The translations under genes were made by a program, and so were the position numbers. The notes under the pieces are model-generated. The model was not told the DNA's origin. It made no database searches and saw only the letters and a list, made by a program, of their open reading frames with translations. From assembly GCA_963796275.1 (NCBI GenBank), contig CAWCKY010000001.1:1184001-1248000 (forward strand): 64,000 bases of DNA. Direction: 5' to 3'. Shown one piece after another: positions 13,601 to 47,901 of the stretch. The DNA comes from an uncultured Acidobacteriota bacterium. GTDB taxonomy: Bacteria; Acidobacteriota; Blastocatellia; RBC074. The first letter of the stretch is position 1. Every line of letters starts with the position of its first letter.

Positions 13601-16600
13601 ATCCGCATCTCCGGCTCGATGACCTGCACTGGCTCTCCCTCTACCTCAGCAAAGTGTGTGCGCAGGCTCTCGTGGCGCGAGATGATGGTATTGATGGTCT
13701 GCTCCAGCGCCTTCAGGTCGAGCTCGCCGCGCAGCCGCAGCGCGCTGGGCATGTTGTACTCGGTGCTGGTCTCTCCCAGCCGATCGAGAAACCAGAGGCG
13801 CTGCTGGGCATAGGAGAGGGGCAGACGCCCGGGCCGCTGCTGCGGCGCAAGCGGAGCGCGCCCTGTCTTAGACTCTCGCAGCCGCGGGCTGAGCTGGGCA
13901 ACAGAGGGCGATTCAAAGAGGGTGCGAATGGCCAGTTCCGCTCCCAGCGTGGCGCGCACTCGGCTGACCAGTCGGGTGGCCAGCAGCGAGTGGCCGCCGA
14001 GTTCAAAGAAGTTGTCGTCAATGCCCACCCGCTCCAGACCGAGCACCTCGGCGAACAACGAGCAGAGAATCTCCTCGTGCGGGCTGCGCGGAGCCTTCCA
14101 GACAGAGGTTGAGATCAACTCCGGTTCCGGCAGGGCCTTGCGGTCCAATTTTCCATTGGGTGTCAGCGGCAGCGCTTGTAACTCGACGATGGCTGCCGGC
14201 ACCATATAGTCGGGCAGGCGCCGGGCTAATTGCTGCCGTACAGAGGTGGAATCAATGCTCCGGCCGGGTGCGGGCACCAGATAGCCGGTCAGTCGCTTCT
14301 CTCCCGGAATATCCTCGCGCGCCACCACCACTGCCTGAGCCACTTCCGGCAGCTCGCGCAGGGCAGACTCGATCTCGCCCGGCTCGATGCGGAAGCCGCG
14401 AATCTTGACCTGCTGATCGGCTCGTCCCAGAAACTCCAGGTTCCCGTCGGCCCGCCAGCGCGCCAGGTCTCCCGTCCGGTACATCCGCATTCCAGGTTCG
14501 CCGTATGGATCACCCACAAAGCGATCGGCGGTCAGGGCCGGGCGCTTGAGATATCCGCGCGCCAACCCTGCTCCTGCGATATAGAGCTCTCCTGCCACTC
14601 CCACCGGAACAGGTCCTAAACCACTATCCAAAACATACACACGCGTGTTGCAGATCGGTTGCCCTATAGGTGGCTCCCCAACTCCTAATAGTGGCCCACT
14701 CGTCGTCGCACACACTGTTGTCTCCGTCGGGCCATACGCATTGATCATCCGGCATTTCTCCGACCATCGCGCCGCCACTTCTGCAGGGCATGCCTCTCCA
14801 GCAACAATCAGGGTGTTAAGTTGTATAACCTGATCTTCTGCGAAATCGGCAACCACCACCGGCGGTAGCGTTGCGTGGGTCACCCTATGCTTGTGCATTG
14901 CCTTCACCAATAATTCACCTCTGCGCTCTTCCTCCCCTAAAAGCGTCAGCTTAGCGCCAGATAATAGACCCATCACGATTTCATAGAACGATGAGTCGAA
15001 GCTCAATGAAGCGAACTGTAGAACGCGGGACTCGGATGTAACACCGAATTGATGGATGCCCGCCGCTGAAAGGCTGGGAATGCCTCTGTGGGTGACTACA
15101 ACGCCTTTGGACCTACCAGTAGAGCCGGATGTGTAGATGATATAGGCCGGGTTGTGCGGCCGCAGAGACCGGCCCGGATTGCCGCAGGGTAATTGCTCTA
15201 TCGCCTTGGGCAGTTCCGCTTGATCGAGCAATAGGCAGCCCGTCCATACGGGCAAGTGTGCCATTATCTCACCGGTTGTGATGAGGCAAGCTGGCTCGGC
15301 GTCCTCCATCATGAAGGTGAGGCGCTCGGCTGGATACTCGGCGTCGATGGGCAGATAGGCCGCTCCTGCCTTCAAAATACCCAGCAGCGCAACGATCATC
15401 TCCGGCGACCGCGGCAGGGCCAGCGCCACCACATCCTCCGGCCCAACTCCCTCACCGATCAGCAGGTGCGCCAATCGATTGGCTCGCTCGTTCAACTCTC
15501 GGTAGGTCAGCTCCTGCTCCTGATAGATCACCGCCACCGCTCCGGGCGATCTTCGGACCTGCTCTTCAAACAGCTCTACCAGCGTCGCCTCTGGCATCTC
15601 TCGCCGTGTCTGGTTCCATTCCTCCAGTATCTGCCTGCGCTCCTCGGCTGTGAGCATATCTAATCGCCCGATCCGCTCTTTCGGATCAGCCAACACCGCC
15701 TCCAACACCCGCAGATAGTGGCGTCCCATCTGCTCCATCCTCCACCCATCAAACAAATCCCTATTGTAGAGCCACGCGATCTGAATCTCTCCCTCGCTCT
15801 CCCATGCGTGCACCTCCAGGTCGAAGCGCACTCGCAGCTCGTCTCCCATTACCTCCTCCACCTCCAGCCCCTTCACCCGCTCGGCCACCTGCGGCGCATT
15901 CTGCAAGGCGAAGACCACCTGGTAGATGGGCGTCGTGTCCAGGCTCCGCTGCGGAGTGAGCTCCTCCACCAGCCGTTCGAAGGGCACGTCCTGATGCTCA
16001 TAGGCCTCCAGCGCAACTCGCCTCACCTCTCCCATCAGCTCCTCGAAGCTCATCTCCCCATTGACCCTCATCCTCATCACCAGCGTGTTGACGAAGAATC
16101 CGATCATCTCCTCCAACTGCGCCTCCTGCCGGTTGGCGATCGGCGATCCCACCACGATCTCTTCCTGCCCGCTGTAGCGGCTCAGCACTACTCCGAAGGC
16201 GCCGAGCATGCTCATATAGAGGGTCGCCTGACCAGTCTGGCTCACCATCCGCAATCCCGCCGTCTGCTCCCGGTTCAACTTCATCTGACAGAGCTCGGCT
16301 TCATAGGTCTGCACCGGAGGCCGCACTCTATCGGTCGGTAACTCCAGTCGCTCGGGAATCCCGGCTAACTGCTCCTTCCAGTAGGCGAGCCCTTCTTGAA
16401 GGCCCTCCTGCTCCAGCCATTGCCTCTGCCACAAGGCGAAGTCGGCATACTGCACCGCCAGGGGCCGCAGCGGATTCTCTCTCCCCTCGCAGAACGCCTG
16501 GTAGAGCAGGGTCAACTCCTGATTGAAGACCCCCTCCGACCAACCGTCAGATGCGATGTGATGCATCGTCCTGATCAGGATGTGATCGCGCTCGGCCAGC

Positions 16601-33555: not shown

Positions 33556-33571
33556 TGGCATCTAACTTGCT
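33556..33571 (+). promoter_or_regulatory. Candidate sigma54 (-24/-12) promoter facing the CHAT gene
   Basis: TGGCATCTAACTTGCT matches TGGCAC-N5-TTGCW with exact spacing and one mismatch, about 230 bp upstream of ATG 33798. Confidence 0.55.
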
Positions 33572-33797: not shown

Positions 33798-36700
33798 ATG
33801 ATTCACCCGCTGCCAAGATCAACTCGAGTTATGTTTCGTTCATGGATTGTCTATCTCGGACTCGGACTCACATTCTCTATCAGCCTGCTATTGATGCCCA
33901 ATGAAATTCGAGCATCTCGAAGTACGTTCGCCGTAAGCAATGAAGTGAAGGCTTACGTTGGCGTGGTCGGTTTGGCGCAGGAGAATCAGCAGAACTTGCA
34001 AACCGAACTGGGAAAGCCGATTGAACGAAAGCTGGCTGGTGGCGACTCTCATTATTATGCTTATCAACTCACGCTGGCTAACGGTCAATCTGCCAGGCTG
34101 GTCGTTCATCAAAAGGGGATCGACGTCCTGGTGAAGCTCTTTGGTCCGGATGGGAAACAGATCGCGGAGTTTGACTCTGAAGCCACGACGCAGGGACAAG
34201 AGACCGTGTCGTGGGTAGCGGAAGTGGCGGGGAGCTACCGGGTGGATGTGGTGGCGAAACAGAAGGATGCGGTGGCCGGACGCTATGAGATCAATGTGGC
34301 TGAGGTGCGCGTAGCGACTGAGAATGATCGAGCTCTGTATGAATCGGACAAGTTGTATGCGGAATCAGGCAGACTCTTAGCTAAGTTTGATGAGGCGCGC
34401 CCGCTAGCTGAACGTGCATTGGAGATTCGGGAACGGGTGTTGGGGACGGAGCACTACGATGTCGCTCGCGCTCTCAATCGTCTCGCCAACATATATTTGT
34501 TCAACGATTATTTCACGAAAGCGGAGCCGTACTATCAGCGTGCGCTAGCTATCTCGGAAAAATTGCTCGGCCCCGAAAATTCTTTTGTGCTTGGTTGTCG
34601 CGACAATCTTGCCCTCGCTTATAAGCAGATGGGCGACTATTCAAAGGCAGAACCGCTTTATCAGCGCACGCTAGACATCAGGCAAAAATCGTTGGGACTC
34701 GAACATCCTCTCGTCGGCCTCTCTGTTGATAATATTGCCAACATCTATACTTTGAAAGGCGACTACGGCAAGGCGGAACCTCTATATCAACGTGCGCTGG
34801 CCATCGCGGAGAAAGCACTGGGACCAGAACACCCCGGTATCGCTCGTCTTCTCAACAGCATAGCCCTTCTCTATTATTACAATGGTGACTACACCAAGGC
34901 AGAGCCGCTCTATCTGCGTGCCCTGGCCATCGGGGAGAAATCTTTGGGAGCTGAGTCCTCCGAAGTGACTGGATATGTCTACCAAAGTCTCTCGTTTGAA
35001 CTCGGCGAGTATCTCTTCAATCTCGCGGTCTTATACCGCGACCAAGGAAACTTTGACAAGGCAGAGCCGCTCTTTCAACGCGCACTGACCATATCGGAAA
35101 AATCGCTCGGGCCCGAAAACTCCATTTCCGCTAAGGTCCTACACCACTCCGCCATTCTCCATCGCAAGAGAGGCGACTTAGCCAAGGCGGAGTCGTTATA
35201 TGAACGCGCGCTGAAGATGGCGGAGAAGACGCTGGGGCCTGAACACCCTGATATCGCGATTACTCTCGGTGACTCTGCTTTCCTTTACGAGGCAAAAGGC
35301 GATATCGCTCAAGCTGTTGCGTCTCTGTCTCGCGCCAATGCCGTTGTCGAGCGCGATCTCACGCGCAATCTTGTTTCCGGTTCCGAACGACAGAAACTCG
35401 CTTACCTCTCTTTCTTCGCGAAACAGACCAATCTTTCACTGGCAATCTCGCTCCATAGCCAGGCTGCGCCGAACGATCCGCAGGCATTAGATCTGGCTCT
35501 CACAACTTTGTTGCGTCATAAAGGGCGCGGTCTCGATGCAATGACCGATACCATCGCCATTTTGCGGCGTAATGCCACACCGCAAAATCGAGCGCTCTTC
35601 GATAATCTCAAGGAAACCAGCTCGGAATTGGCCTCGCTGAAACTCAAAGATTCAGGCGCGGGGGACGTAGAAACTTACCGGAAAAGAATTAAGGATCTGG
35701 AAGGTAAGGTTGATGATCTGGAAAATGAACTCAGCTCTCGTAGCCAAGAGTTTCAGGCGCAAACGCGACCGATCACGATCGCATCAGTCCAAGCTGCGCT
35801 TCCAGCGGACAGCGCGCTAATCGAGTTTGCCTTGCACACGCCGCTGGACCCAAAGACTGAGGAGAAAAAACAGGCGCGCTACGTCGCCTATATACTCACG
35901 GCGAAAGGTCAACCCAAGTGGGTAGCCCTTGGCGAAGCTGCTAAGGTCGATCGGGCAGTGGATGTCTGGCGCGAAGCATTACGCGATCCAAACCGGACAG
36001 ATGTCAAACTGCTCGCGCGCGACGTGGATGAGAAGGTGATGCGCCCTGTTCGATCTTTACTTGGTGAAACGCGCCGACTCCTGATTGCGCCCGATAGTAT
36101 GCTAAGTCTCATACCATTCGCTGCCCTCATCGATGAACAGAATCAGTATCTGCTTGAGCGTTTCTCTATCAGCTATCTGACCAGCGGGCGTGATTTGTTG
36201 AGGCTGCAAACGCCACAGCCGAGCAAGACGGGCCCGCTTGTAGTTGCCAATCCCGACTTCGGCCGATTCGCTACAATCGCTATGCGGACAGATCGGGGCG
36301 CCGGAAATGCGCGAGCACAGATTGATCCGACACAGATATTCTTCCAGCCGCTGCCGGGCACCGAAGATGAGGCATTGGCGATCAAAACCCTGTTACCGAA
36401 GGCATCGGTGTTGAGACGGGAACAGGCTACCGAAAGGGCGCTCAAACAGGCAAGTGGGCCGCGCATCCTGCATATCGCAACGCACGGCTTCTTCCTAAAT
36501 AATCAGGATACTGCACCTGTAGATGATAACCCTTTGCGTGTTAGTTCCGAGGAAACTGGCGAACCGGCCAGTCCTTACACGGTTCAGCTTGAATCCTTAC
36601 CAGTGCTCGAAACCGCTCAAGAGAAGGTCAAGGGATTCAGGTCGCGGGGCTTGAATGCCTATATCGTCAAGACCGAGGTGAATGGCAAAGGCACCTTCTT

Positions 36701-37331
36701 CCGCGTGCGCGCCGGAAATTTTCGGACTCAAAACGAGGCTCTGAAATACGGTGCTAACCTGCAGGATAAGGGGGTTGTCAGCGATTACTTCGTCGCACGT
36801 TATGAGTCGCCGCAGCGAGGTTTACAGCTGCCAGCCGGTAATGACAAATTGCGGCTCAGCAAGTTTGCGACGCTAGTCGAAGACCCATTGCTGCGCTCTG
36901 GCCTCGCGCTGGCTGGAGCTAACCAGGGTAAAAGCGGAGAAGAAGATGACGGTATCTTGACAGCGCTGGAGGCGGCTTATCTAGACTTATTTGGAACAAA
37001 ACTGGTAGTCCTTTCCGCGTGCGATACGGGTGTAGGGGAAGTTAAGAAAGGCGAAGGTGTTCAGGGGTTGCGGCGCGCGTTTGTACTGGCCGGATCAGAG
37101 AGCCAGGTGATGAGCCTCTGGCCGGTCTCGGACGAAGCGGCCAAAGATCTGATGATCCCTTATTACAAGGCCCTCCAGCAGGGAGAAGGGCGGGGTGAAG
37201 GCCTGAGGCAAGTGCAGTTGCGAATGCTACACGGCCGAAAGGACCAGCGACATCCGTTTTACTGGGCAGCATTCATTCAATCCGGGGAATGGGCGAACTT
37301 GGAAAAAGGTAGCGATCTTGGAAAAAGGTAA
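33798..37331 (+). CDS. Secreted/anchored TPR-repeat CHAT (caspase-like) protease with internal SPOR domain
   Basis: N-terminal hydrophobic segment, PPC-like beta domain, roughly 7-8 kinesin-light-chain-type TPRs (AEPLYQRALAI.EK.LGPEHP), CHAT motifs HIATHGF and LSACDTG, C-terminal HPFYWAAF. SPOR-like YTVQL...FFRVRAGNF lies between the His and Cys. Confidence 0.9.
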   Translation: MIHPLPRSTRVMFRSWIVYLGLGLTFSISLLLMPNEIRASRSTFAVSNEVKAYVGVVGLAQENQQNLQTELGKPIERKLAGGDSHYYAYQLTLANGQSARLVVHQKGIDVLVKLFGPDGKQIAEFDSEATTQGQETVSWVAEVAGSYRVDVVAKQKDAVAGRYEINVAEVRVATENDRALYESDKLYAESGRLLAKFDEARPLAERALEIRERVLGTEHYDVARALNRLANIYLFNDYFTKAEPYYQRALAISEKLLGPENSFVLGCRDNLALAYKQMGDYSKAEPLYQRTLDIRQKSLGLEHPLVGLSVDNIANIYTLKGDYGKAEPLYQRALAIAEKALGPEHPGIARLLNSIALLYYYNGDYTKAEPLYLRALAIGEKSLGAESSEVTGYVYQSLSFELGEYLFNLAVLYRDQGNFDKAEPLFQRALTISEKSLGPENSISAKVLHHSAILHRKRGDLAKAESLYERALKMAEKTLGPEHPDIAITLGDSAFLYEAKGDIAQAVASLSRANAVVERDLTRNLVSGSERQKLAYLSFFAKQTNLSLAISLHSQAAPNDPQALDLALTTLLRHKGRGLDAMTDTIAILRRNATPQNRALFDNLKETSSELASLKLKDSGAGDVETYRKRIKDLEGKVDDLENELSSRSQEFQAQTRPITIASVQAALPADSALIEFALHTPLDPKTEEKKQARYVAYILTAKGQPKWVALGEAAKVDRAVDVWREALRDPNRTDVKLLARDVDEKVMRPVRSLLGETRRLLIAPDSMLSLIPFAALIDEQNQYLLERFSISYLTSGRDLLRLQTPQPSKTGPLVVANPDFGRFATIAMRTDRGAGNARAQIDPTQIFFQPLPGTEDEALAIKTLLPKASVLRREQATERALKQASGPRILHIATHGFFLNNQDTAPVDDNPLRVSSEETGEPASPYTVQLESLPVLETAQEKVKGFRSRGLNAYIVKTEVNGKGTFFRVRAGNFRTQNEALKYGANLQDKGVVSDYFVARYESPQRGLQLPAGNDKLRLSKFATLVEDPLLRSGLALAGANQGKSGEEDDGILTALEAAYLDLFGTKLVVLSACDTGVGEVKKGEGVQGLRRAFVLAGSESQVMSLWPVSDEAAKDLMIPYYKALQQGEGRGEGLRQVQLRMLHGRKDQRHPFYWAAFIQSGEWANLEKGSDLGKR

Positions 37332-39242: not shown

Positions 39243-40163
39243 ATGATAAAAAATTGGCATGATAAAAAAAGAATTGCAAGTAGTATGGTTAAAATCAGTA
39301 AATTCCTTAGTCTTGTCCTGAGGCATCAACCCGACAAGATTGGGGTGATGCTCGACAAGGCGGGTTGGGTTTCTGTGGAGGAGTTGATCGAAGCTCACAT
39401 CGACCGCGATTTGAATGATAATGATCTGAAAGGCAAACCGCCGGAAGGTTTGAGCGGGGCGCAACTCAAGCGGTGGAAATACAAACGCTACATGCAAGAT
39501 TACCTGGCCTGCGTCGCCTCGGTGGACGACAACATCGGACGCTTCCTCGATTATCTTGATAAAACCGGTCAGGCAAAAAATACCATTGTGATCTATACCT
39601 CGGATCAGTGCTTTTTTCTCGGTGAGCACAACTTTTTCGATAAACGGTTTATGTACGAGGAGTCGCTGCGGATGCCTTTCGTCATACTCTGGCCCGGACA
39701 GATCAAGGCCGCTTCGATCAATAAGAAACTGGTCCTCAATGTGGACTTCGCGCCGACTATGCTGGACGCGGCCGGTGTGAAAATGCCCTCTGATATGCAG
39801 GGCCGAAGTTTCCTGCCGCTCCTGCGCAGCCAGAAACCCAAAGGCTGGAGGACTTCAATGTATTATCGGTATTACCATCCGGGCCATCACAACGTGGCGG
39901 CGCACTACGGTATTCGCACGGAGCGATACAAACTGATCTACTTCAATAAGCTTAATCAGTGGGAACTATACGATCTGAAGAATGACCCGGTTGAAATGCG
40001 CAACATCTACGCCGATCCCGTCAATGCGGGGCTCGTGACGAAGCTCAAGACTGAAATGTACAGATTGAAAAAAGCTCTGAAGGACGAGGATAAGTTTCAG
40101 GAAAATCTGCCGCTTGATGATGTTGGTGGTGGCAGGGTGCGAGCCCGACAATCGATGAACTGA
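39243..40163 (+). pseudogene. Chimeric ORF: N-terminal fragment of RNA 2'-phosphotransferase (KptA/Tpt1) fused in frame to the C-terminal half of a sulfatase
   Basis: ISKFLSLVLRHQPDKIGVMLDKAGWVSVEELI is the KptA N-terminal motif. The rest (YMQDYLACVASVDDNIGR...YTSDQCFFLGEH...DKRFMYEESLRMPF...NVDFAPT...WELYDL) is a sulfatase C-half with no CxPxR motif. Confidence 0.8.
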
Positions 40164-41055: not shown

Positions 41056-42408
41056 TTACATCCTCTCCCGTACAGCTTTTATGCTTCCAAGCATGCCGAG
41101 AAGAATAATGAGCAATAGGGAAATGCCTGCTGCAGGCATCAGTACGCCCAGCAGGCATATCAACGCGATCAGCCATTTGGCCGGGTTGAATCCTTTTGGT
41201 TTATATGGAAAACCGGTTTTGCCTTTGGGCCGGCGAATCCACCACATTGCACCACCCGTCACGCTCATTGCTACGATCAACACACAGACGATCACGGCCA
41301 GAATCTTGGTCGCCGTGCCGTAGATCGATCCGATGTGGATTGAGTAGGCTGAGAGCTGCAATTTGGCTGCGGCCGAGAGCTGCCGCCATCGGACTGAATC
41401 CAGCACGGCACCTGAATACTGATCGATATGAAGAATCGTGACCGTTGACGGACTGTCGTAACTTCCCGCATAAACCGTGATGCTATTCTCGGCCGTGTGC
41501 GGGAAATCGATGTAAATCTCTTTTTCGCTTTGCTCCCGCCGCGTTAAGGCGATGATTTCATCGACCTTCACGCGGGCATCGCCGTCTTTCTTGATCGATT
41601 TTGGCGGATTGAGATAGCTCGGCGGATAGGATTTCGTCATATCAGCCATCATCTGATAGCCGCGTGCGAATAGAACCGTGAAAAAGAGGCCGGTCACCAG
41701 TACCAGGAAGGCGAGGAGTGAGAGATAGAAGCCGGGGACCGTGTGCCAGTCGCGCCAGATGACATAACTCTTTCCGCGCAATCGCGGCAGCCAGACGCCG
41801 CGCGTCTGATTGCCGCCGCGGGGCCACCACAGATAAACGCCCGTGATAATCAGGATGATGCCCCAGCTTGTTGCCAGTTCGACGATGATTCTGCCAGTCG
41901 TTCCGGCCAGCAGAGTGCGGTGGATATTGAGGATGACGCCGAAAAGTGAACTGTCATACGCGAGCTGCCCGAGCACGTTGCCCGTATGCTGATTGACGAA
42001 TACCCATGTAAAGCTTTCATGCGCAGTCTCGGCGATGATGGCTGTTGCGCGCGTGGGATCGTCTGAAACGGACACACCATGCACCGTTGCGCCAGAGGGA
42101 AGGGCAGCGGTCGCGGTTGTTAGCTGTTCGTCATATGAAAATGTTTGCGGCTGCGGCTCGACAAACATCAGATGCGGATAGATCACCCGTTCCAGCTCTT
42201 CTTTGAAAACATATAGCCCCCCGGTTAGGGAAACAGCTAGGAGCACGGGCAATACGATCAATCCCGCATAGAAATGCCAGCGCCAGATGACTCGGTAAAG
42301 ACGAGGCTCTTGCCTTCCATTGGTGATGATCTCGTCATGAGCAGCATCAGCCGTAGCCGGTTTAAAATGCTCTTCTGCCACGCTCGTGGTGTTCATCTCT
42401 AGACTCAT
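41056..42408 (-). CDS. PepSY-associated TM-helix protein (FoxB-like iron/siderophore uptake membrane protein)
   Basis: WRWHFYAGL...SLTG, IHRTLLAG, TGVYLWWPR, RDWHTVPG, IDQYSG and IHIG conserved His motifs. Directly downstream of a siderophore receptor. Start placed at MSLEMN. Confidence 0.88.
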   Translation of the reverse strand: MSLEMNTTSVAEEHFKPATADAAHDEIITNGRQEPRLYRVIWRWHFYAGLIVLPVLLAVSLTGGLYVFKEELERVIYPHLMFVEPQPQTFSYDEQLTTATAALPSGATVHGVSVSDDPTRATAIIAETAHESFTWVFVNQHTGNVLGQLAYDSSLFGVILNIHRTLLAGTTGRIIVELATSWGIILIITGVYLWWPRGGNQTRGVWLPRLRGKSYVIWRDWHTVPGFYLSLLAFLVLVTGLFFTVLFARGYQMMADMTKSYPPSYLNPPKSIKKDGDARVKVDEIIALTRREQSEKEIYIDFPHTAENSITVYAGSYDSPSTVTILHIDQYSGAVLDSVRWRQLSAAAKLQLSAYSIHIGSIYGTATKILAVIVCVLIVAMSVTGGAMWWIRRPKGKTGFPYKPKGFNPAKWLIALICLLGVLMPAAGISLLLIILLGMLGSIKAVRERM

Positions 42409-42418
42409 AGATGTTTTG

Positions 42419-44755
42419 TTAGAAACGGTAACTGATGTTCGCTGTAATGGCCCGGCGCAAACCATAGAAACAGTCGCCCCGCGCCAGGCAAGTTGTGACG
42501 TGCACTCTATCGGTCAGGTTGGCGACATTGATCGCCAGTCGCCAGGTTCGAAAATCATAGGATAACATTGCATCGAAGAGGGTATAGGAAGGGGTTTTCA
42601 GTAGGTCGTTCCCATCCCATGATGTGCCGGTGAAGCGCACGCCGCCACCAGCGGTAAGGCTTCGTGAGTCGCCGATGCGGAAGATGCGCGTCGCCCACAG
42701 CGATGCGACGTGCGCCGGCGATGTCGGCAGCCTCTTTCCGAGGTCCGGACCGTTGCTCTTCGAGACGCGCGCATTTGTGAAGGAATAAGACGACAGCAGA
42801 TTCACTCTTCGGAAAACGGTGGCGTTGGCCTCGAGTTCGATCCCGCGCGTACGAGCTTCTCCGATCTGCAGGCTGTTGAGCGGATTGGTCGGATCAGGCG
42901 TGAGCCGGTTCTGTTGCCGCATATCGAAGAGAGCAAGACTTACCAGACCATTCCCGCTTCGCGGCTGGTACCGGACGCCGACCTCTACCTGCTTGCCACG
43001 CAGCGGCTTGTAGGGATTGTTATTGAAGTCGAGGCCCGTCACTGGTTGAAACGACTGCGAATAGTTAACGTAGGGAGAGATTCCGAGACTTGATAGGTAG
43101 ACGAATCCTGCCCGTCCCGTCACAGCTTGATCGTTCTGCCGCCCGGGGGTTACGCCCGCGGATTCGAAGCTGGCCCAGTCCTTGCGTATACCCATCGACA
43201 ATACCCACTGCTCGCGTATTTTGAGCTGGTCGTTGGCATAGATGCCGGTCTGATTCTGTCGTGTGTCGGGTAAGGCGTTCAGAGTTGGATAAGTGTAATT
43301 ACCGTAAACTGGAGTATAGACATCGAGCGCAGGCTCGTCGCTATACCCTTCGAAACCGGTGATCGTCGCCTTCTGATAATCCACCCCGGATAAAAACAGA
43401 TGTTGAAAAGGGCCCGTGCGCCAGCGTTTTTCCATCTGAGTATCAAACGCAAGGCTATTGAGCTCCTGCTTACTTACATAGAGTGTACGGTTGATACTCC
43501 GCTGGTCGTCGTTGAAAGCCGGAATCGGAGCGAATCGGGTATAGAACTCCTGAATGCTTCCGCGGCCGTTAGCGTAATTCAGGTTTTGCCGCACCGAGCA
43601 CCTGTCACTCAATCTGTGTTCGAAGAGATAGCTGATCGCGTTTTGTCTGGTGCTGTACTCATCGATGTCGGGTTCGCCTATGAACGTGTTGGTCGGAATC
43701 TGTCCGTAGACGTGCGGCAAAACCGTACCCTGCCAGGGGAAGAAACCGATCGATGAGCCGCCCTCGTCCTGTTGGAAATTGGTGAGAACGGTCAGCCGGG
43801 TTGCCTTTCCCGGCTTCCAGGTCAGCGATGGCGCGAGCAGCAGACGATCGTCCGGCACATAGTCCACCTGCGTGTTGCTGTCGCGACCGAGGGCGATTAT
43901 GCGATAGAGCCATTTTTCGTCGGTATCGATCGATCCGGTGAAATCGAACGCAGCCTGTTTGCGACCGTAGCTGCCCAGTTGCAGGCTGACTTCCCGGTGT
44001 GAGGTGGCAAGCGGTTTTTTTGAAACCAGATTGACGACCCCATTGAAACTGCCCTGACCATATAGTACCGAAGATGGTCCCCGTAGAACTTCGATCTGCT
44101 CGATGGAAAACGGGTCAGGCCGCGTATTGTTATTGTAGCCATACAACATGCGGATGCCGTTGAGATATTGTCCCCATTCCTCACCGCCGCGGATTGTCGC
44201 CCAATCGCCGCGGCTGTCGAGACCGTATGCTTCCGTGCGCACTCCCGCTGTGTAACGCAGCGCCTCCTGCAGAGTGAGGGGAGATTGGGCCACGAGATTT
44301 TCACGAGTAACAACCGAGGTTGCCTGCGGCGTCTCGACCAGCGGAATGTCTGTCTTCGAAGCCGTGGTAGGGATCTCTCTGATTTTCCCGACCACCTGGA
44401 CTGATTCTGTCATTCCGGGGGGGGCGAGGGCGATCTGCAGATCGAGCGTCTGGCCGGCCGCGAGCGTAATCTCCCGTGACTTCTCGGAGAGGCCGGCGCT
44501 CCGTACTATGACTCGATACGAACCGGGATCGAGATTTTCGATGTGAAAGTTCCCTTCGGCATCGGTCGCCGCCATCTTTTCACGGCCCGATGCAACTTCG
44601 CGCAGAATGATGGTAGCGCCAGCCAAAACAGATTGGGCTGTATCCGTTACTCTCCCCGTCAGCGTTGCAGTAGATTGGGCACGGACGAATAGTGTAATAA
44701 ATACACAACAGAGCAGACCCGCGGCAGTCCGCAGAAACATATTCCTTTTGGTCAT
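42419..44755 (-). CDS. TonB-dependent siderophore receptor (FhuA/FoxA-like) with N-terminal carboxypeptidase-regulatory-like domain
   Basis: TASKTDIPLVETPQATSVVT, EALRYTAGV, IEVLRGPSSVLYG plug motifs and C-terminal SYRF. Start placed at MTKRN (ORF track starts at 44794). Confidence 0.92.
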   Translation of the reverse strand: MTKRNMFLRTAAGLLCCVFITLFVRAQSTATLTGRVTDTAQSVLAGATIILREVASGREKMAATDAEGNFHIENLDPGSYRVIVRSAGLSEKSREITLAAGQTLDLQIALAPPGMTESVQVVGKIREIPTTASKTDIPLVETPQATSVVTRENLVAQSPLTLQEALRYTAGVRTEAYGLDSRGDWATIRGGEEWGQYLNGIRMLYGYNNNTRPDPFSIEQIEVLRGPSSVLYGQGSFNGVVNLVSKKPLATSHREVSLQLGSYGRKQAAFDFTGSIDTDEKWLYRIIALGRDSNTQVDYVPDDRLLLAPSLTWKPGKATRLTVLTNFQQDEGGSSIGFFPWQGTVLPHVYGQIPTNTFIGEPDIDEYSTRQNAISYLFEHRLSDRCSVRQNLNYANGRGSIQEFYTRFAPIPAFNDDQRSINRTLYVSKQELNSLAFDTQMEKRWRTGPFQHLFLSGVDYQKATITGFEGYSDEPALDVYTPVYGNYTYPTLNALPDTRQNQTGIYANDQLKIREQWVLSMGIRKDWASFESAGVTPGRQNDQAVTGRAGFVYLSSLGISPYVNYSQSFQPVTGLDFNNNPYKPLRGKQVEVGVRYQPRSGNGLVSLALFDMRQQNRLTPDPTNPLNSLQIGEARTRGIELEANATVFRRVNLLSSYSFTNARVSKSNGPDLGKRLPTSPAHVASLWATRIFRIGDSRSLTAGGGVRFTGTSWDGNDLLKTPSYTLFDAMLSYDFRTWRLAINVANLTDRVHVTTCLARGDCFYGLRRAITANISYRF

Positions 44756-44884
44756 TCGTTTTCCGTTATACGGCTGCTTGTGAGAGCAACCCAAGGTTTG
44801 TCATTTCATAGGCGGTGTGGCAGGATGACCCTCGCACACTGCCCGCGATGTTGCCAGAACAGACCGGTTCAGTTGTTGCAATAT

Positions 44885-44916
44885 GAGCCTCCGGCGTGCC
44901 GCGCCGGGGGCTTTTT
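44885..44916. other. GC-rich 12-bp hairpin with T-run on the + strand, in the leader of the siderophore receptor gene
   Basis: GAGCCTCCGGCG-TGCCG-CGCCGGGGGCTT-TTT. Confidence 0.4.
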
Positions 44917-45077
44917 CCTGATACCTTTTCTCAATTTTTATAGAGCTAGTGAGTTACCCAGCTCGATGACCCCACGTTATTCTTACCCCGCACCTACCTC
45001 TCCGGGATAAATATCCGGTAATAAATTTCTTTGAAAACTAGATGTCATGAGATCTAAATAGATAAGTTAGCTGAAGT

Positions 45078-45216: not shown

Positions 45217-47901
45217 ATGAAGAGTGATTTCGATCTAGCAATTATCGGTTCTGGGTTTTCCGGTTCGCTGATGGCGATGATTGCGCGGCGCACGGGTCGA
45301 TCGGTCATTCTGTTGGATCACGGCGGGCATCCGCGATTCGCCATTGGGGAGTCGACCTCGCCGCTAATGAATCTGATCATCGAGCAATTGGCTGATCGCT
45401 ACGACCTGCCGCGACTGAAACCGCTCGCCACCTGGGGGGAGTGGCAGCGCACCTATCCGCAACTTGTTGGGGGGCTTAAACGCGGGTCCACCTTCTTCAA
45501 ACACGAATCGGGCACACCCTATCGGACAGCTCCGGATCATTCGAATCAATTACTTATATCAGCCAACCCGAACGATGAGGCCGCCGACACCCACTGGCTA
45601 CGCTCTGATGTTGATTATTTTCTGTTGCAGGAAGCCATTTCATGCGGAGCGGAATATCTTGATCAAACACGACTGAACTCCCTCGAATGGGCGGGTAGCG
45701 ACGGGGCAAACGGGGCAAACGGAGCAATCGGGGCAAACGGAGCAATACTTCGTGGTGAACGGCGCGGACGAGCTGTTAATCTGCGCGCGCGTTTTATTGT
45801 CGATGCCAGCGGCCCGCGCGGATTCTTGAGCAGGGCGCTCAATCTGAAGGAGCGGGCTTTTGCTGATTTTCCGGCGACCCAGGCGCTCTATTCACATTTC
45901 ATTGGCGTCCATCGATGTGAGGGGATGCCGGATTACGAAGTCGAAATAGATCCGCCGTACCCGATGGATGATTCGGCCGTACATCATGTTTTTGACGGTG
46001 GTTGGATGTGGGTTTTGCGTTTCAACAACGGAGTGACCAGCGCTGGGATCGCCGTAACCGAAGATATGGCGAGAGAGTTGAAACTGGCGGAGGGTGAAGC
46101 CGCTTGGCAGCGATTCCTTGCGCGATTCCCCTCGATCGCCGAGCAGTTTGCCGGCGCGCGAGCGATTCGAGAATTCACCTGGATGCCCCATCTGACGTAT
46201 CGTTCCGAGCTGGCTGCCGGGGACGGCTGGGCTTTGCTTCCGTCGGCCGCGGCATTCATCGATCCGCTTTTCGGTCCGGGGATGCCGATGTCGGTGCTCG
46301 GCATCGAAAGGCTCGGCCGGTTACTGGAGCATGACATCGCGGATTGTGAGGTTAATGACAGACTACGCGAATATAGCCGGGTGACGCTTATGGAAGCCGA
46401 TCATACGGCTGATTTCGTTGCTGGCTGCTATGCCGCGTTCCCGCATTTTGAACTCTTTACATCACTCTCGATGGTTTATTTTGCGGCCGCCAGCTTCTGT
46501 GAAATGGCCCGCAGATTGGGACGAAACCATCTAGCGCAGCGTTTTCTGGCCGTGGACCGACCGGCCTTTGCTAATGCTTCTGGCAGCCTGAGTCAAATTT
46601 TGCGTCACAACGAATGCCTTGACTCGATCCTATTTGCCGCTCAGGTGAAACAGAATATCGATACGCTGAACATAGCCGGGCTTTGCGATCAACGCAAACG
46701 AAACTGGTACGATGTGGATATTGAAAATATGATCCGATGCGCCGATAAGCTGGAGGTTACGTCAGATGAGATGGGAAGATTTTTGCGGAGCGCGAATTGG
46801 GCGCAAAAAGCCGTCCAACTTCATCAGGATCACACGAAGCAGCTGATTCAATCGGGGCAACTGCGCCAACGTTCGATCCGGCTATCCCATAATCTTTCCC
46901 GGGATGAAGCAGAATCTGGTGGCGATATGGTTGGATCCTGCCCGGCATTTCAGCTGATGCTCGAAGACGCCTTGAACGTTGCTCCTACCGATGTCACTGT
47001 TCTCCTGCGCGGAGAAACGGGGACGGGCAAGGAGCTGCTCGCCTACGCGATTCACCAGCACAGTTTACGCAGGCTCGGCCCATTCGTCATCGTCAATTGC
47101 GCGGCGTTGCCGCCTTCGTTGATAGAAAGCGAACTGTTCGGGTACGAGAAAGGCGCTTTCACCGGTGCGTCGCTGCGAAAGCCCGGGCGGTTCGAACTGG
47201 CGGATGGGGGAACCATCTTTTTGGATGAGATCGGTGAAGTGCCGCTGGAGATACAGGGAAGATTCTTGCGCGTGCTGCAGACCGGCGTTTTCGAGCGATT
47301 GGGGAGCACGAAGAGCGTCCGCGTCAAGGTCCGTATAATCGCTGCGACCAATCAGCCGCTCGAGCAACTCGTCAATGAGCGAAAGTTCCGCTCCGATCTT
47401 TTTTACCGTCTCAACGTCTTTCCGATCACACTGCCTCCGCTGCGCGAGCGATCAGCCGATATCCCACTGCTAGTTCGGCATTTCGTCGATAAATACAATG
47501 CGCGGTTCAAACGTTCGATAACATCGATCAGCAAACAGTCGCTCCACGCCTTGGAACAGTATGGCTGGCCCGGCAATGTGCGGGAGCTGGAACATCTGGT
47601 GGAGCGCGCCGTCCTCTCCGCTAAAGGTGAGATATTGAAAGTCGCACCACCCGCGATCTGCCTCGAACCTGCTTTACCGGTTAATGAAAGAGACACCCAG
47701 TTGGCCGAACCTGGTGTTTCGGCGCGGCCCGCAACCCTTACTGAGAACGAGTTGGCCCACATTCGAATGGTTTTGCGCCGCACTGGCGGCCGCATTTCGG
47801 GGCCGCAGGGAGCCGCTTCGATTCTCGGCATCCCGCCATCAACGCTTCGCAGTCGAATCAAAAAGCTGGGATTGAAAATCAATCCGGACGGCGCAAATTG
47901 A
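45217..47901 (+). CDS. Fusion protein: flavin-dependent halogenase-like domain plus sigma54-dependent activator (AAA+ and Fis-type HTH, FhlA-like)
   Basis: N-part: IIGSGFSG, HPRFAIGES, KRG, GWMWVLRF, AFIDPLF. C-part: GETGTGKE, ESELFGYEKGAFTGA, FLDEIGE, RIIAATN, DLFYRLNV, WPGNVREL, GAASILGIPPSTLRSRIKKLG. One uninterrupted 894-aa frame. Confidence 0.9.
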   Translation: MKSDFDLAIIGSGFSGSLMAMIARRTGRSVILLDHGGHPRFAIGESTSPLMNLIIEQLADRYDLPRLKPLATWGEWQRTYPQLVGGLKRGSTFFKHESGTPYRTAPDHSNQLLISANPNDEAADTHWLRSDVDYFLLQEAISCGAEYLDQTRLNSLEWAGSDGANGANGAIGANGAILRGERRGRAVNLRARFIVDASGPRGFLSRALNLKERAFADFPATQALYSHFIGVHRCEGMPDYEVEIDPPYPMDDSAVHHVFDGGWMWVLRFNNGVTSAGIAVTEDMARELKLAEGEAAWQRFLARFPSIAEQFAGARAIREFTWMPHLTYRSELAAGDGWALLPSAAAFIDPLFGPGMPMSVLGIERLGRLLEHDIADCEVNDRLREYSRVTLMEADHTADFVAGCYAAFPHFELFTSLSMVYFAAASFCEMARRLGRNHLAQRFLAVDRPAFANASGSLSQILRHNECLDSILFAAQVKQNIDTLNIAGLCDQRKRNWYDVDIENMIRCADKLEVTSDEMGRFLRSANWAQKAVQLHQDHTKQLIQSGQLRQRSIRLSHNLSRDEAESGGDMVGSCPAFQLMLEDALNVAPTDVTVLLRGETGTGKELLAYAIHQHSLRRLGPFVIVNCAALPPSLIESELFGYEKGAFTGASLRKPGRFELADGGTIFLDEIGEVPLEIQGRFLRVLQTGVFERLGSTKSVRVKVRIIAATNQPLEQLVNERKFRSDLFYRLNVFPITLPPLRERSADIPLLVRHFVDKYNARFKRSITSISKQSLHALEQYGWPGNVRELEHLVERAVLSAKGEILKVAPPAICLEPALPVNERDTQLAEPGVSARPATLTENELAHIRMVLRRTGGRISGPQGAASILGIPPSTLRSRIKKLGLKINPDGAN
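45703..45747 (+). repeat. In-frame 9-bp tandem repeat x5 (GAN/GAI)
   Basis: ggggcaaac ggggcaaac ggagcaatc ggggcaaac ggagcaata encodes GANGANGAIGANGAI. Confidence 0.85.

Follow-up and report, generated by a model that had tools for sequence, protein, structure and literature searches.

A single gene at positions 45217..47901 (+) of a 64,000-nucleotide stretch of genome from an uncultured soil Acidobacteriota bacterium of the class Blastocatellia (assembly GCA_963796275.1, contig CAWCKY010000001.1, positions 1,184,001 to 1,248,000; the whole stretch is called the window below) encodes an 894-amino acid (aa) protein in which a flavin-dependent halogenase (FDH) fold precedes a bacterial enhancer-binding protein (bEBP), the type of AAA+ activator that works with sigma54. 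The fusion is real and conserved, not a one-off junction. The explanation that we favor, and consider probable with some reserve, is that the protein acts as a one-component sigma54 activator and that a pseudo-halogenase of enzymatic origin serves as its input module.

The gene is one uninterrupted open reading frame (ORF), and, as the initial annotation claimed, no stop codon interrupts the linker between the two halves. Its start codon is fixed by the N-terminus MKSDFDLAIIGSG, which is kept in the loci of 10 relatives. Residues 1-527 (45217..46797, +) make up an FDH-fold domain of the CtcP/PltM type, as judged by PDB sequence search (CtcP, E 4.8e-51; PltM, E 4.7e-45), AlphaFold, and Foldseek; the Pfam Trp_halogenase profile gives a partial match (residues 188-407, 38.3 bits, cut-off 21). 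The AlphaFold model, built on a 99-row alignment, has predicted local distance difference test (pLDDT) values of 90-99 over residues 1-550, except in the loop 165-172, and superposes on the whole CtcP and PltM chains with template modeling scores, TM(target), of 0.80-0.85. The halogenase-like part, earlier called apparently complete, is therefore complete.

All motifs named in the initial annotation are present. On the plus strand, the N-half carries the GxGxxG dinucleotide-binding motif for flavin adenine dinucleotide (FAD), GSGFSG (residues 11-16, 45247..45264), the PRFAIGES block (45331..45354), and Lys88 (45478..45480) within LKRG (45475..45486), which falls opposite the GQK/GIK Lys of CtcP and PltM in alignments. 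Two of the motifs stand only in part. The WxW motif is there but reads WxWxLR (GWMWVLRF, 46000..46023, +) instead of the canonical halogenase WxWxIP, and FIDPLF is there but is followed by G-P-G (FIDPLFGPG, 46255..46281, +), with Gly353 in place of the Ser of the S-x-G found in relatives and in solved halogenases. The N-half also contains an in-frame tandem repeat of five 9-bp units (45701..45745, +; Tandem Repeats Finder), which encodes GANGANGAIGANGA and forms a surface-loop insert. The consensus of the relatives has no such insert, pLDDT falls below 50 in this loop (residues 165-172), and the repeat looks like a recent, frame-keeping microsatellite expansion.

The interdomain linker (residues 527-575, 46795..46941, +) is modeled as a helix (527-553) followed by a disordered segment (553-575). 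It leads into an AAA+ sigma54-interaction domain with its lid (residues 572-809, 46930..47643, +), recognized by Pfam Sigma54_activat (residues 572-737, 226.9 bits, cut-off 20.2) and AAA_lid_14 (residues 743-809). This domain contains a Walker A motif, GETGTGKE (residues 599-606, 47011..47034, +), the sigma54-contact loop GAFTGA (residues 646-651), which lies at 47152-47169 (+) exactly as first annotated, and a Walker B motif, FLDEIGE (residues 668-674, 47218..47238, +). A Fis-type helix-turn-helix (HTH) DNA-binding domain, HTH_8, closes the protein (residues 842-884, 47740..47868, +; Pfam 26.4 bits, cut-off 22), and its recognition helix PPSTLRSRIKKLG is common to the window protein and the consensus of its relatives. 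Since the NCBIfam NifA, FhlA, and NorR models match far below their cut-offs and only within residues ~510-890, the C-half is regarded as a generic bEBP. The genome encodes the matching sigma factor: rpoN is represented by one Sigma54_DBD match (198 bits, G000:C3:1419712-1420188) within a 548-aa open frame. The Sigma54_activat profile, both Walker motifs, GAFTGA, a C-terminal HTH, and a host sigma54, that is, each bEBP property that could be tested, are thus all found, and ATP-dependent activation of a -24/-12 promoter is predicted. Domain and motif evidence together bear out the earlier description of an intact bEBP half with a halogenase-like half in the regulatory input position.

The initial annotation had left room for an indel in the linker, or for relatives in which the two parts are always encoded separately, and had proposed looking for the architecture in other genomes. 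Public metagenome contigs from four runs have no insertion or deletion on 46300-47300, and a metagenome contig of 3158 nt, from another study, covers this entire segment and aligns with 77 substitutions but 0 gaps. When 5.8 billion proteins (sources JGI, NCBI, ENA, and Logan) were searched by word index, the matches included 68 clusters of at least 850 aa that contain both halves and are 67-88% identical to the window protein over 97-100% of the query. The named clusters come from metagenome-assembled genomes of Blastocatellia or Acidobacteriota, and the source labels of these proteins are “tetracycline 7-halogenase” and “FADH2 O2-dependent halogenase.” All 30 fused relatives that were aligned keep the linker in frame, though its length and sequence vary. 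We also surveyed 301 genomes of the class, counting as fused an open frame of at least 738 aa with 74-100% identity (genome G244 was left out). In family f1, 14 of the 87 sampled genomes, which belong to four genera and count the window's own among them, carry a fused copy; none of the 214 genomes from nine other families does. Three further searches were less informative. A related-locus search of genome contigs kept 80 loci, was swamped by generic bEBPs, and yielded 0 fused relatives; a protein atlas search yielded stand-alone halogenase-family clusters only; and none of the public runs listed as holding the stretch is RNA, the best DNA run sharing 0.26 of words.

Where the N-domain came from is suggested by stand-alone proteins of ~520 aa that are 58-67% identical to it over its whole length. 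A HMMER scan of 1.84 billion representatives gave 725 matches at E<=1e-30, and among the best 150 a single one (885 aa) has the length of a fusion. A FastTree phylogeny was built from 523 columns of 124 N-domains, with three sequences of a different family in the class as the root. In it, all 69 fused N-domains form one clade with support of 0.997, nested among stand-alone forms and with a stand-alone group of five as its sister. By this phylogeny, the stand-alone halogenase-like proteins are the direct evolutionary source of the fused N-domain, and the fused protein arose once, in one Blastocatellia family.

The stand-alone gene is the last gene of a conserved operon. The operon includes TPR and FG-GAP/UnbV_ASPIC proteins, a weak RnfD-like membrane protein, an ATP-binding cassette (ABC) ATPase with an SsuA-like binding protein, sometimes accompanied by a rhodanese-Rid protein, and then an Asn-synthase-like protein and a RaSEA-like radical S-adenosylmethionine (SAM) protein, with the halogenase-like gene at the end. 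Locus L122 of genome G125 has a gene for a 392-aa bEBP directly after the enzyme gene, across the junction TGA-T-ATG, and behind it receptor-like and major facilitator superfamily (MFS) transporter genes. The split-form bEBP of G125 is 65% identical to the C-half of the window protein, compared with 52% for the best paralogue in the window's genome. It represents a short bEBP family (P0271-P0305, alignment A4; ~35 clusters of ~395-405 aa) whose only N-terminal feature is a highly conserved, Q/N-rich heptad coiled coil of ~60 residues (…ILANQEQIKQNQ.KLDLLLASQETILANQEQI…).

The short bEBP and the fused gene are mutually exclusive in the 10 genomes checked. Five genomes with only the stand-alone enzyme have exactly one short bEBP each, 69-100% identical to the split-form query and, in four of the five, on the same contig as the enzyme (adjacent in one, 7-19 kb away in three). 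Five fused genomes match the short bEBP query only through the fused gene. The most economical account is that the terminal enzyme gene of the uptake/enzyme operon was copied and the copy became fused to the bEBP already at that locus, displacing its coiled coil, and that the tunnel of the enzyme changed afterwards. A complex prediction for stand-alone protein P0118 with short bEBP P0271 (residues 1-310) counts neither way (score 0.00, mark 0.32). The window's genome has no stand-alone copy, and the Asn-synthase-like and radical-SAM partners have no tblastn match in it at E<1e-20.

Two further observations concern the stand-alone genes. At loci L119-L123, L128, and L130-L132, an Asn-synthase-like ATP-pyrophosphatase, a RaSEA-like radical-SAM protein, and the halogenase-like flavoprotein form a conserved three-gene module beside an SsuA-like ABC importer and secreted FG-GAP/UnbV_ASPIC proteins. 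At locus L135, a more distant stand-alone halogenase-like gene (G258:C36:8814-10379, -), 49% identical to the window N-domain, lies 6 kb downstream of a fused gene; apart from this genome and the window's own, no sampled genome of that genus has a match.

The tunnel signature marks the clear difference between the fused and the stand-alone proteins. It is FxDPxF-S-T-G in 55 of 55 close stand-alone proteins, and Ser occupies the tunnel position in every listed signature variant of 53 distant representatives (alignment A2). Among the fused proteins, 67 of 69 read G-(P/A)-G, with Gly353 at this position. The two that keep Ser353, together with Phe91 beside the Lys, form the basal branch of the fused clade, and the Ser-to-Gly change therefore followed the fusion. 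Seven substitutions, at positions 28, 34, 353, 358, 417, 428, and 486, are specific to the fused clade. Lys88 is conserved in 66 of 69 fused proteins and is replaced (by R, N, and R) in three, all of them full-length, against no replacement in the 108 stand-alone proteins (55/55 close, 53/53 distant). G11 and G13 of the FAD motif are kept in 67/69 fused proteins and G16 in 66/69. The N-domain is still under constraint, with identities between relatives of 73-78% in the N-half and 77-81% in the AAA+ half.

Of the features expected of an active FDH, the N-half has the FDH fold, the Trp_halogenase profile, GxGxxG, and the catalytic Lys. The WxWxI(P) motif (which reads WMWVLR) and the Ser of the Fx.Px.Sx.G tunnel motif (which reads FIDPLFGPG) are missing, and for that reason we do not file the N-half as an active halogenase. 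The accessible parts of reviews state that WxWxI(P) prevents mono-oxygenation, and those of PMC8407142 and PMC12871659 that Fx.Px.Sx.G lines the tunnel and is possibly present in all active FDHs. Because the tunnel Ser is changed, Lys88 is sometimes lost, and the partner enzymes and a stand-alone copy are absent, we infer that the N-domain is kept for binding and not for halogenation. It is probably an enzyme-derived, FAD-binding sensor rather than a working halogenase. Control by halide occupancy, one of the inputs offered in the initial annotation, is unlikely given the replacement of the tunnel Ser in 67/69 and of the catalytic Lys in 3/69 fused proteins, and occupancy by a ligand or by FAD would be the best reading of what controls the protein.

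The loci of the relatives point to outer-membrane transport as the predicted output. In 7 of 10 loci the fused gene is divergent from a receptor-like gene (CarboxypepD_reg + OMP_b-brl_4, TonB-receptor-like), an MFS gene, or both. An element of the -24/-12 type, CGGCYAG-N4-WTTGCW, faces the transporter operon in 6 of 10 loci, and two to four copies of a 12-bp site, GCGAWATNTCGC, spaced 19-20 bp apart, occur in 8 of 10. These arrays lie ~120-150 bp upstream of the -24/-12 element. The intergenic region of the relatives also contains a TTGAAT-17-TATTTT element before the fused gene.

A matrix for the sites was trained on the fused loci of the relatives only, and its independent results are its matches in the window's genome and its misses in 14 stand-alone loci, in which it found no site pairs. 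In the 9.46-Mb genome it finds 10 site pairs, the top three at 31.6-33.1 bits and the next at 23.0. All of the top three precede receptor-like genes; the 600-bp zones upstream of the 135 such loci make up 0.86% of the genome. One pair (C6:2826050) precedes C6:2826412-2829792, a 77%-identical orthologue of the relatives' neighbor, with TGGTCAGAGAATTGCC at the expected distance, and the second (C4:693348) precedes a 1078-aa gene with TGGCGGAGAAATTGCT. The genome has a very large repertoire of sigma54 regulators and outer-membrane transporters, with 60 Sigma54_activat matches at E <= 0.001 (44 above 180 bits) for a single rpoN, and 135 CarboxypepD_reg/OMP_b-brl_4 loci. At locus L120, where a receptor gene follows the stand-alone enzyme, no canonical GG-N10-GC element was found in the right place.

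The immediate neighbor of the fused gene in the window is probably not a target of the regulator. It is a divergent TonB-dependent receptor gene (CarboxypepD_reg + Plug + barrel; 42419..44794, -), co-oriented with a gene for a PepSY_TM membrane protein (41056..42465, -), and it is a different kind of TonB receptor from that found beside the fused gene in relatives. A sigma70-like promoter, TTGACA-17-TAATAT at 45131-45103 (-), points at it, and its sole -24/-12 look-alike, a weak one at 44886-44901 (-), lies right against a terminator-like hairpin (44905-44920). This receptor/PepSY_TM operon was rejected as a target, as it has the sigma70-like promoter instead of tandem sites.

Taken together, the favored one-component activator would work as follows. 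With its CtcP/PltM fold complete and its FAD-binding motifs retained, the N-domain may bind FAD and a small molecule related to the substrate of the stand-alone ancestor, and may no longer need to halogenate. The signal sensed would be a metabolite, with the redox state of the flavin as the less likely alternative, and the state of the N-domain would be passed through the helical linker to gate the oligomerization or assembly of the AAA+ ring, or its ATPase activity. The active ring is predicted to bind the tandem GCGAWATNTCGC sites, 19-20 bp apart and ~120-150 bp from the -24/-12 promoter, and to open sigma54 promoters of TonB-receptor-like outer-membrane transporters and, in relatives, of the MFS transporter as well. 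Both DNA binding at these sites and the sign of the control are predictions from sequence. It is possible, and we propose it tentatively, that the halogenase fold acts as a true small-molecule receptor with FAD as a structural or redox cofactor, which would make it a new class of sigma54-activator input.

Several observations weigh against this explanation. Matches of the site matrix in the loci on which it was trained are circular, and the link between the GCGAWATNTCGC sites and the bEBP is predicted from conserved proximity. One relative with full flanks, L113, has neither transporter genes nor sites; the window's own intergenic region likewise has no such site, as GCGAWWWWTCGC, with up to one mismatch, has 0 matches in the 64 kb. 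Downstream of the third of the top site pairs (C6:2174970) no canonical -24/-12 element was found, and the receptor gene there is broken up, lying in three ORFs. WxWxLR is present in 69/69 fused proteins, in 55/55 close stand-alone proteins, and in most of the 53 distant representatives, and it is thus common to the stand-alone enzymes and does not discriminate between them and the fused proteins. The window protein keeps Lys88 and the FAD motifs, with which catalysis may still be possible. The alignment is shallow over the AAA+ half, whose pLDDT is consequently low, and interdomain contacts cannot be read from the model. Finally, the proposed FAD binding, ligand binding, and loss of halogenation are all argued from motifs and their conservation. 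As for the broken receptor gene itself (G000:C6:2175202-2178205; L139:4702-7705), its ORFs are of 107, 365, and 534 aa, and it is either a pseudogene or the product of assembly frameshifts.

Other explanations account for parts of the same evidence. If the N-half were a working flavin-dependent halogenase or monooxygenase, its turnover could set the activity of the bEBP in the manner of PutA. The intact Lys88, GxGxxG, and remaining fold in the window protein and in 66/69 fused relatives, an N-half conserved about as much as the AAA+ half, and the full signature of the basal fused pair would fit such a trigger enzyme, and, as the accessible part of PMC8407142 notes, some active FDHs are without canonical motifs, WxWxI(P) included. 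However, Ser353 is gone in all but that basal pair, losses of Lys88 are confined to the fused proteins (three, all full-length), the operon partners are absent from the window's genome, and no flavin reductase or pathway genes are conserved beside the fused gene. We therefore regard a trigger enzyme as unlikely. Another reading in the initial annotation, in which a tailoring enzyme also switches on the pathway that it serves, was not supported: the partner enzymes are absent, the nonribosomal peptide synthetase (NRPS) genes of the window have no counterpart in 16 loci of relatives, and the adjacent receptor has no sites.

A redox or oxygen sensor is a second possibility, in which the FAD/FADH2 state, set by cellular reductant and O2, would gate the bEBP with FAD as the sole ligand. 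Flavin redox control of a bEBP is known from NifL acting on NifA. What has changed in the fused proteins is the tunnel residues, which carry the halogenating species, and not the FAD-binding motifs, and two-component FDHs bind diffusible reduced flavin, according to the accessible part of PMC8407142. On the other hand, the predicted targets are outer-membrane transporters and not redox functions, and a protein that merely sensed flavin would have no use for the helical substrate subdomain at the C-terminal end, which is kept, conserved, and modeled with high confidence; a sensor of flavin alone seems to us quite improbable. As to an assembly artefact or a recent, one-off deletion chimera of two genes, rearrangements do occur in the region, where a chimeric kptA::sulfatase ORF lies 5 kb away, and G125 has both genes separate with only TGA-T-ATG between them. 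Against this, the same fusion is present in the 68 independent clusters from four sources and in 13 genomes besides the window's own, the linker is always in frame, the 3158-nt contig has no gaps, and members of the fused clade have had time to diverge down to 67% identity. An artefact is so improbable that it may be set aside.

Elsewhere in the window, NRPS genes fill positions 2-32886 (-), half of its length and 12 kb upstream of the fused gene. Their ORFs, of 696+ aa (open end), 2088 aa, 770 aa, and 7408 aa, contain Condensation/AMP-binding/PP-binding modules and one methyltransferase domain, and the near-identical module repeats of ~3.15 kb cause short motifs to recur four to five times (e.g., at 14576, 17711, 20867, and 24026). 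A tailoring role of the fused protein in NRPS synthesis was rejected, since one NRPS module, searched by tblastn against 16 loci of relatives (283 kb), found no NRPS counterpart and only two weak matches of 24-25% to stand-alone AMP-binding enzymes. A strong -24/-12 look-alike, TGGCATCTAACTTGCT, at 33556-33571 (+) lies ~230 nt before a 1177-aa TPR-SPOR-CHAT gene (33798-37331, +). The kptA::sulfatase chimera mentioned in the initial annotation is indeed present as a 306-aa ORF at 39243-40163 (+), in which the first ~40 residues of a KptA/Tpt1 RNA 2'-phosphotransferase are joined to the C-terminal part of a sulfatase and SGSH_C.

The N-domain resembles CtcP (tetracycline 7-halogenase) and PltM (a phenolic halogenase), both two-component FDHs, in the whole fold, including the C-terminal helical subdomain, and in GxGxxG, the PRFxxGES block, the aligned Lys, and FxDPLF. 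It differs from CtcP and PltM in that it is only 23-25% identical to them, has WxWxLR for WxWxIP and Gly-Pro for the Ser-Arg of FIDPLFSRG, and is fused to a transcription factor, and the loci of its relatives are not biosynthetic clusters. The stand-alone ~520-aa proteins of Blastocatellia and other phyla, annotated as “tryptophan 7-halogenase” or “FADH2 O2-dependent halogenase,” share WxWxLR and the Lys with it at the 58-67% identity given above; unlike the fused proteins, they keep FxDPxFSTG (55/55), are operon-terminal, and have no DNA-binding or AAA+ part. The C-half has its orthologues in the short coiled-coil bEBPs of Blastocatellia, which have nearly the same HTH recognition helix but carry a Q/N-rich coiled coil in place of the halogenase domain.

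The input domains of bEBPs form a short list: REC, GAF, PAS, V4R, PRD, CARF, and a few others. In ligand-gated bEBPs such as NorR, the N-domain is expected to be in control, and the order of sensor, linker, AAA+ domain with GAFTGA, and HTH_8 is shared with NorR (GAF), XylR/DmpR/MobR (V4R), FhlA (GAF), and PrpR. The sensor of the window protein, in contrast, is a FAD-enzyme fold of ~527 aa, far larger than and unrelated to REC/GAF/PAS/V4R/PRD/CARF. Enzyme-fold regulators are known in MocR/GabR (an aminotransferase fold with a winged HTH), PutA (a flavoenzyme-repressor), DhaR with DhaK/DhaL, and NifL-NifA. In MocR and PutA a complete cofactor-binding enzyme fold is the covalent signal input, and in DhaR and NifL the input acts in trans. 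Their folds, cofactors, and outputs differ from those of the window protein, and the analogy is one of mechanism and not of homology. To our knowledge, none of these combines an FDH fold with a sigma54 AAA+ activator. The proteins are already in databases under generic names, and we found no description of a halogenase-bEBP fusion in the literature searched, although closed supplementary tables of EBP architectures could list one; the accessible parts of PMC12316311 and PMC12871659 do not mention such a fusion.

A flavoenzyme fold of 527 residues as an input widens what can gate an AAA+ transcription activator. The enzyme-to-sensor series is also unusually complete, running from genes that are unlinked in the same locus, through adjacent genes with one base between stop and start, to fused genes with the signature intact and then to fused genes in which the tunnel Ser is gone and the catalytic Lys is occasionally lost, and it makes the evolution of pseudoenzyme sensors directly testable. 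For halogenase mining it is a caution, because these proteins are labeled halogenases, yet the family is without WxWxI(P) and the fused clade is also without the tunnel Ser. If the ligand were found, the protein would offer a compact ligand-responsive sigma54 switch and a handle on the substrates of the organism's 135 TonB-receptor-like paralogues. Should the halogenase fold prove to be a true receptor, the fusion may serve as a “Rosetta stone,” with the widespread stand-alone halogenase-like enzymes of Acidobacteria controlling the coiled-coil bEBP in trans, and many metagenomic “halogenases” would then belong to nutrient-uptake signaling rather than to natural-product chemistry.

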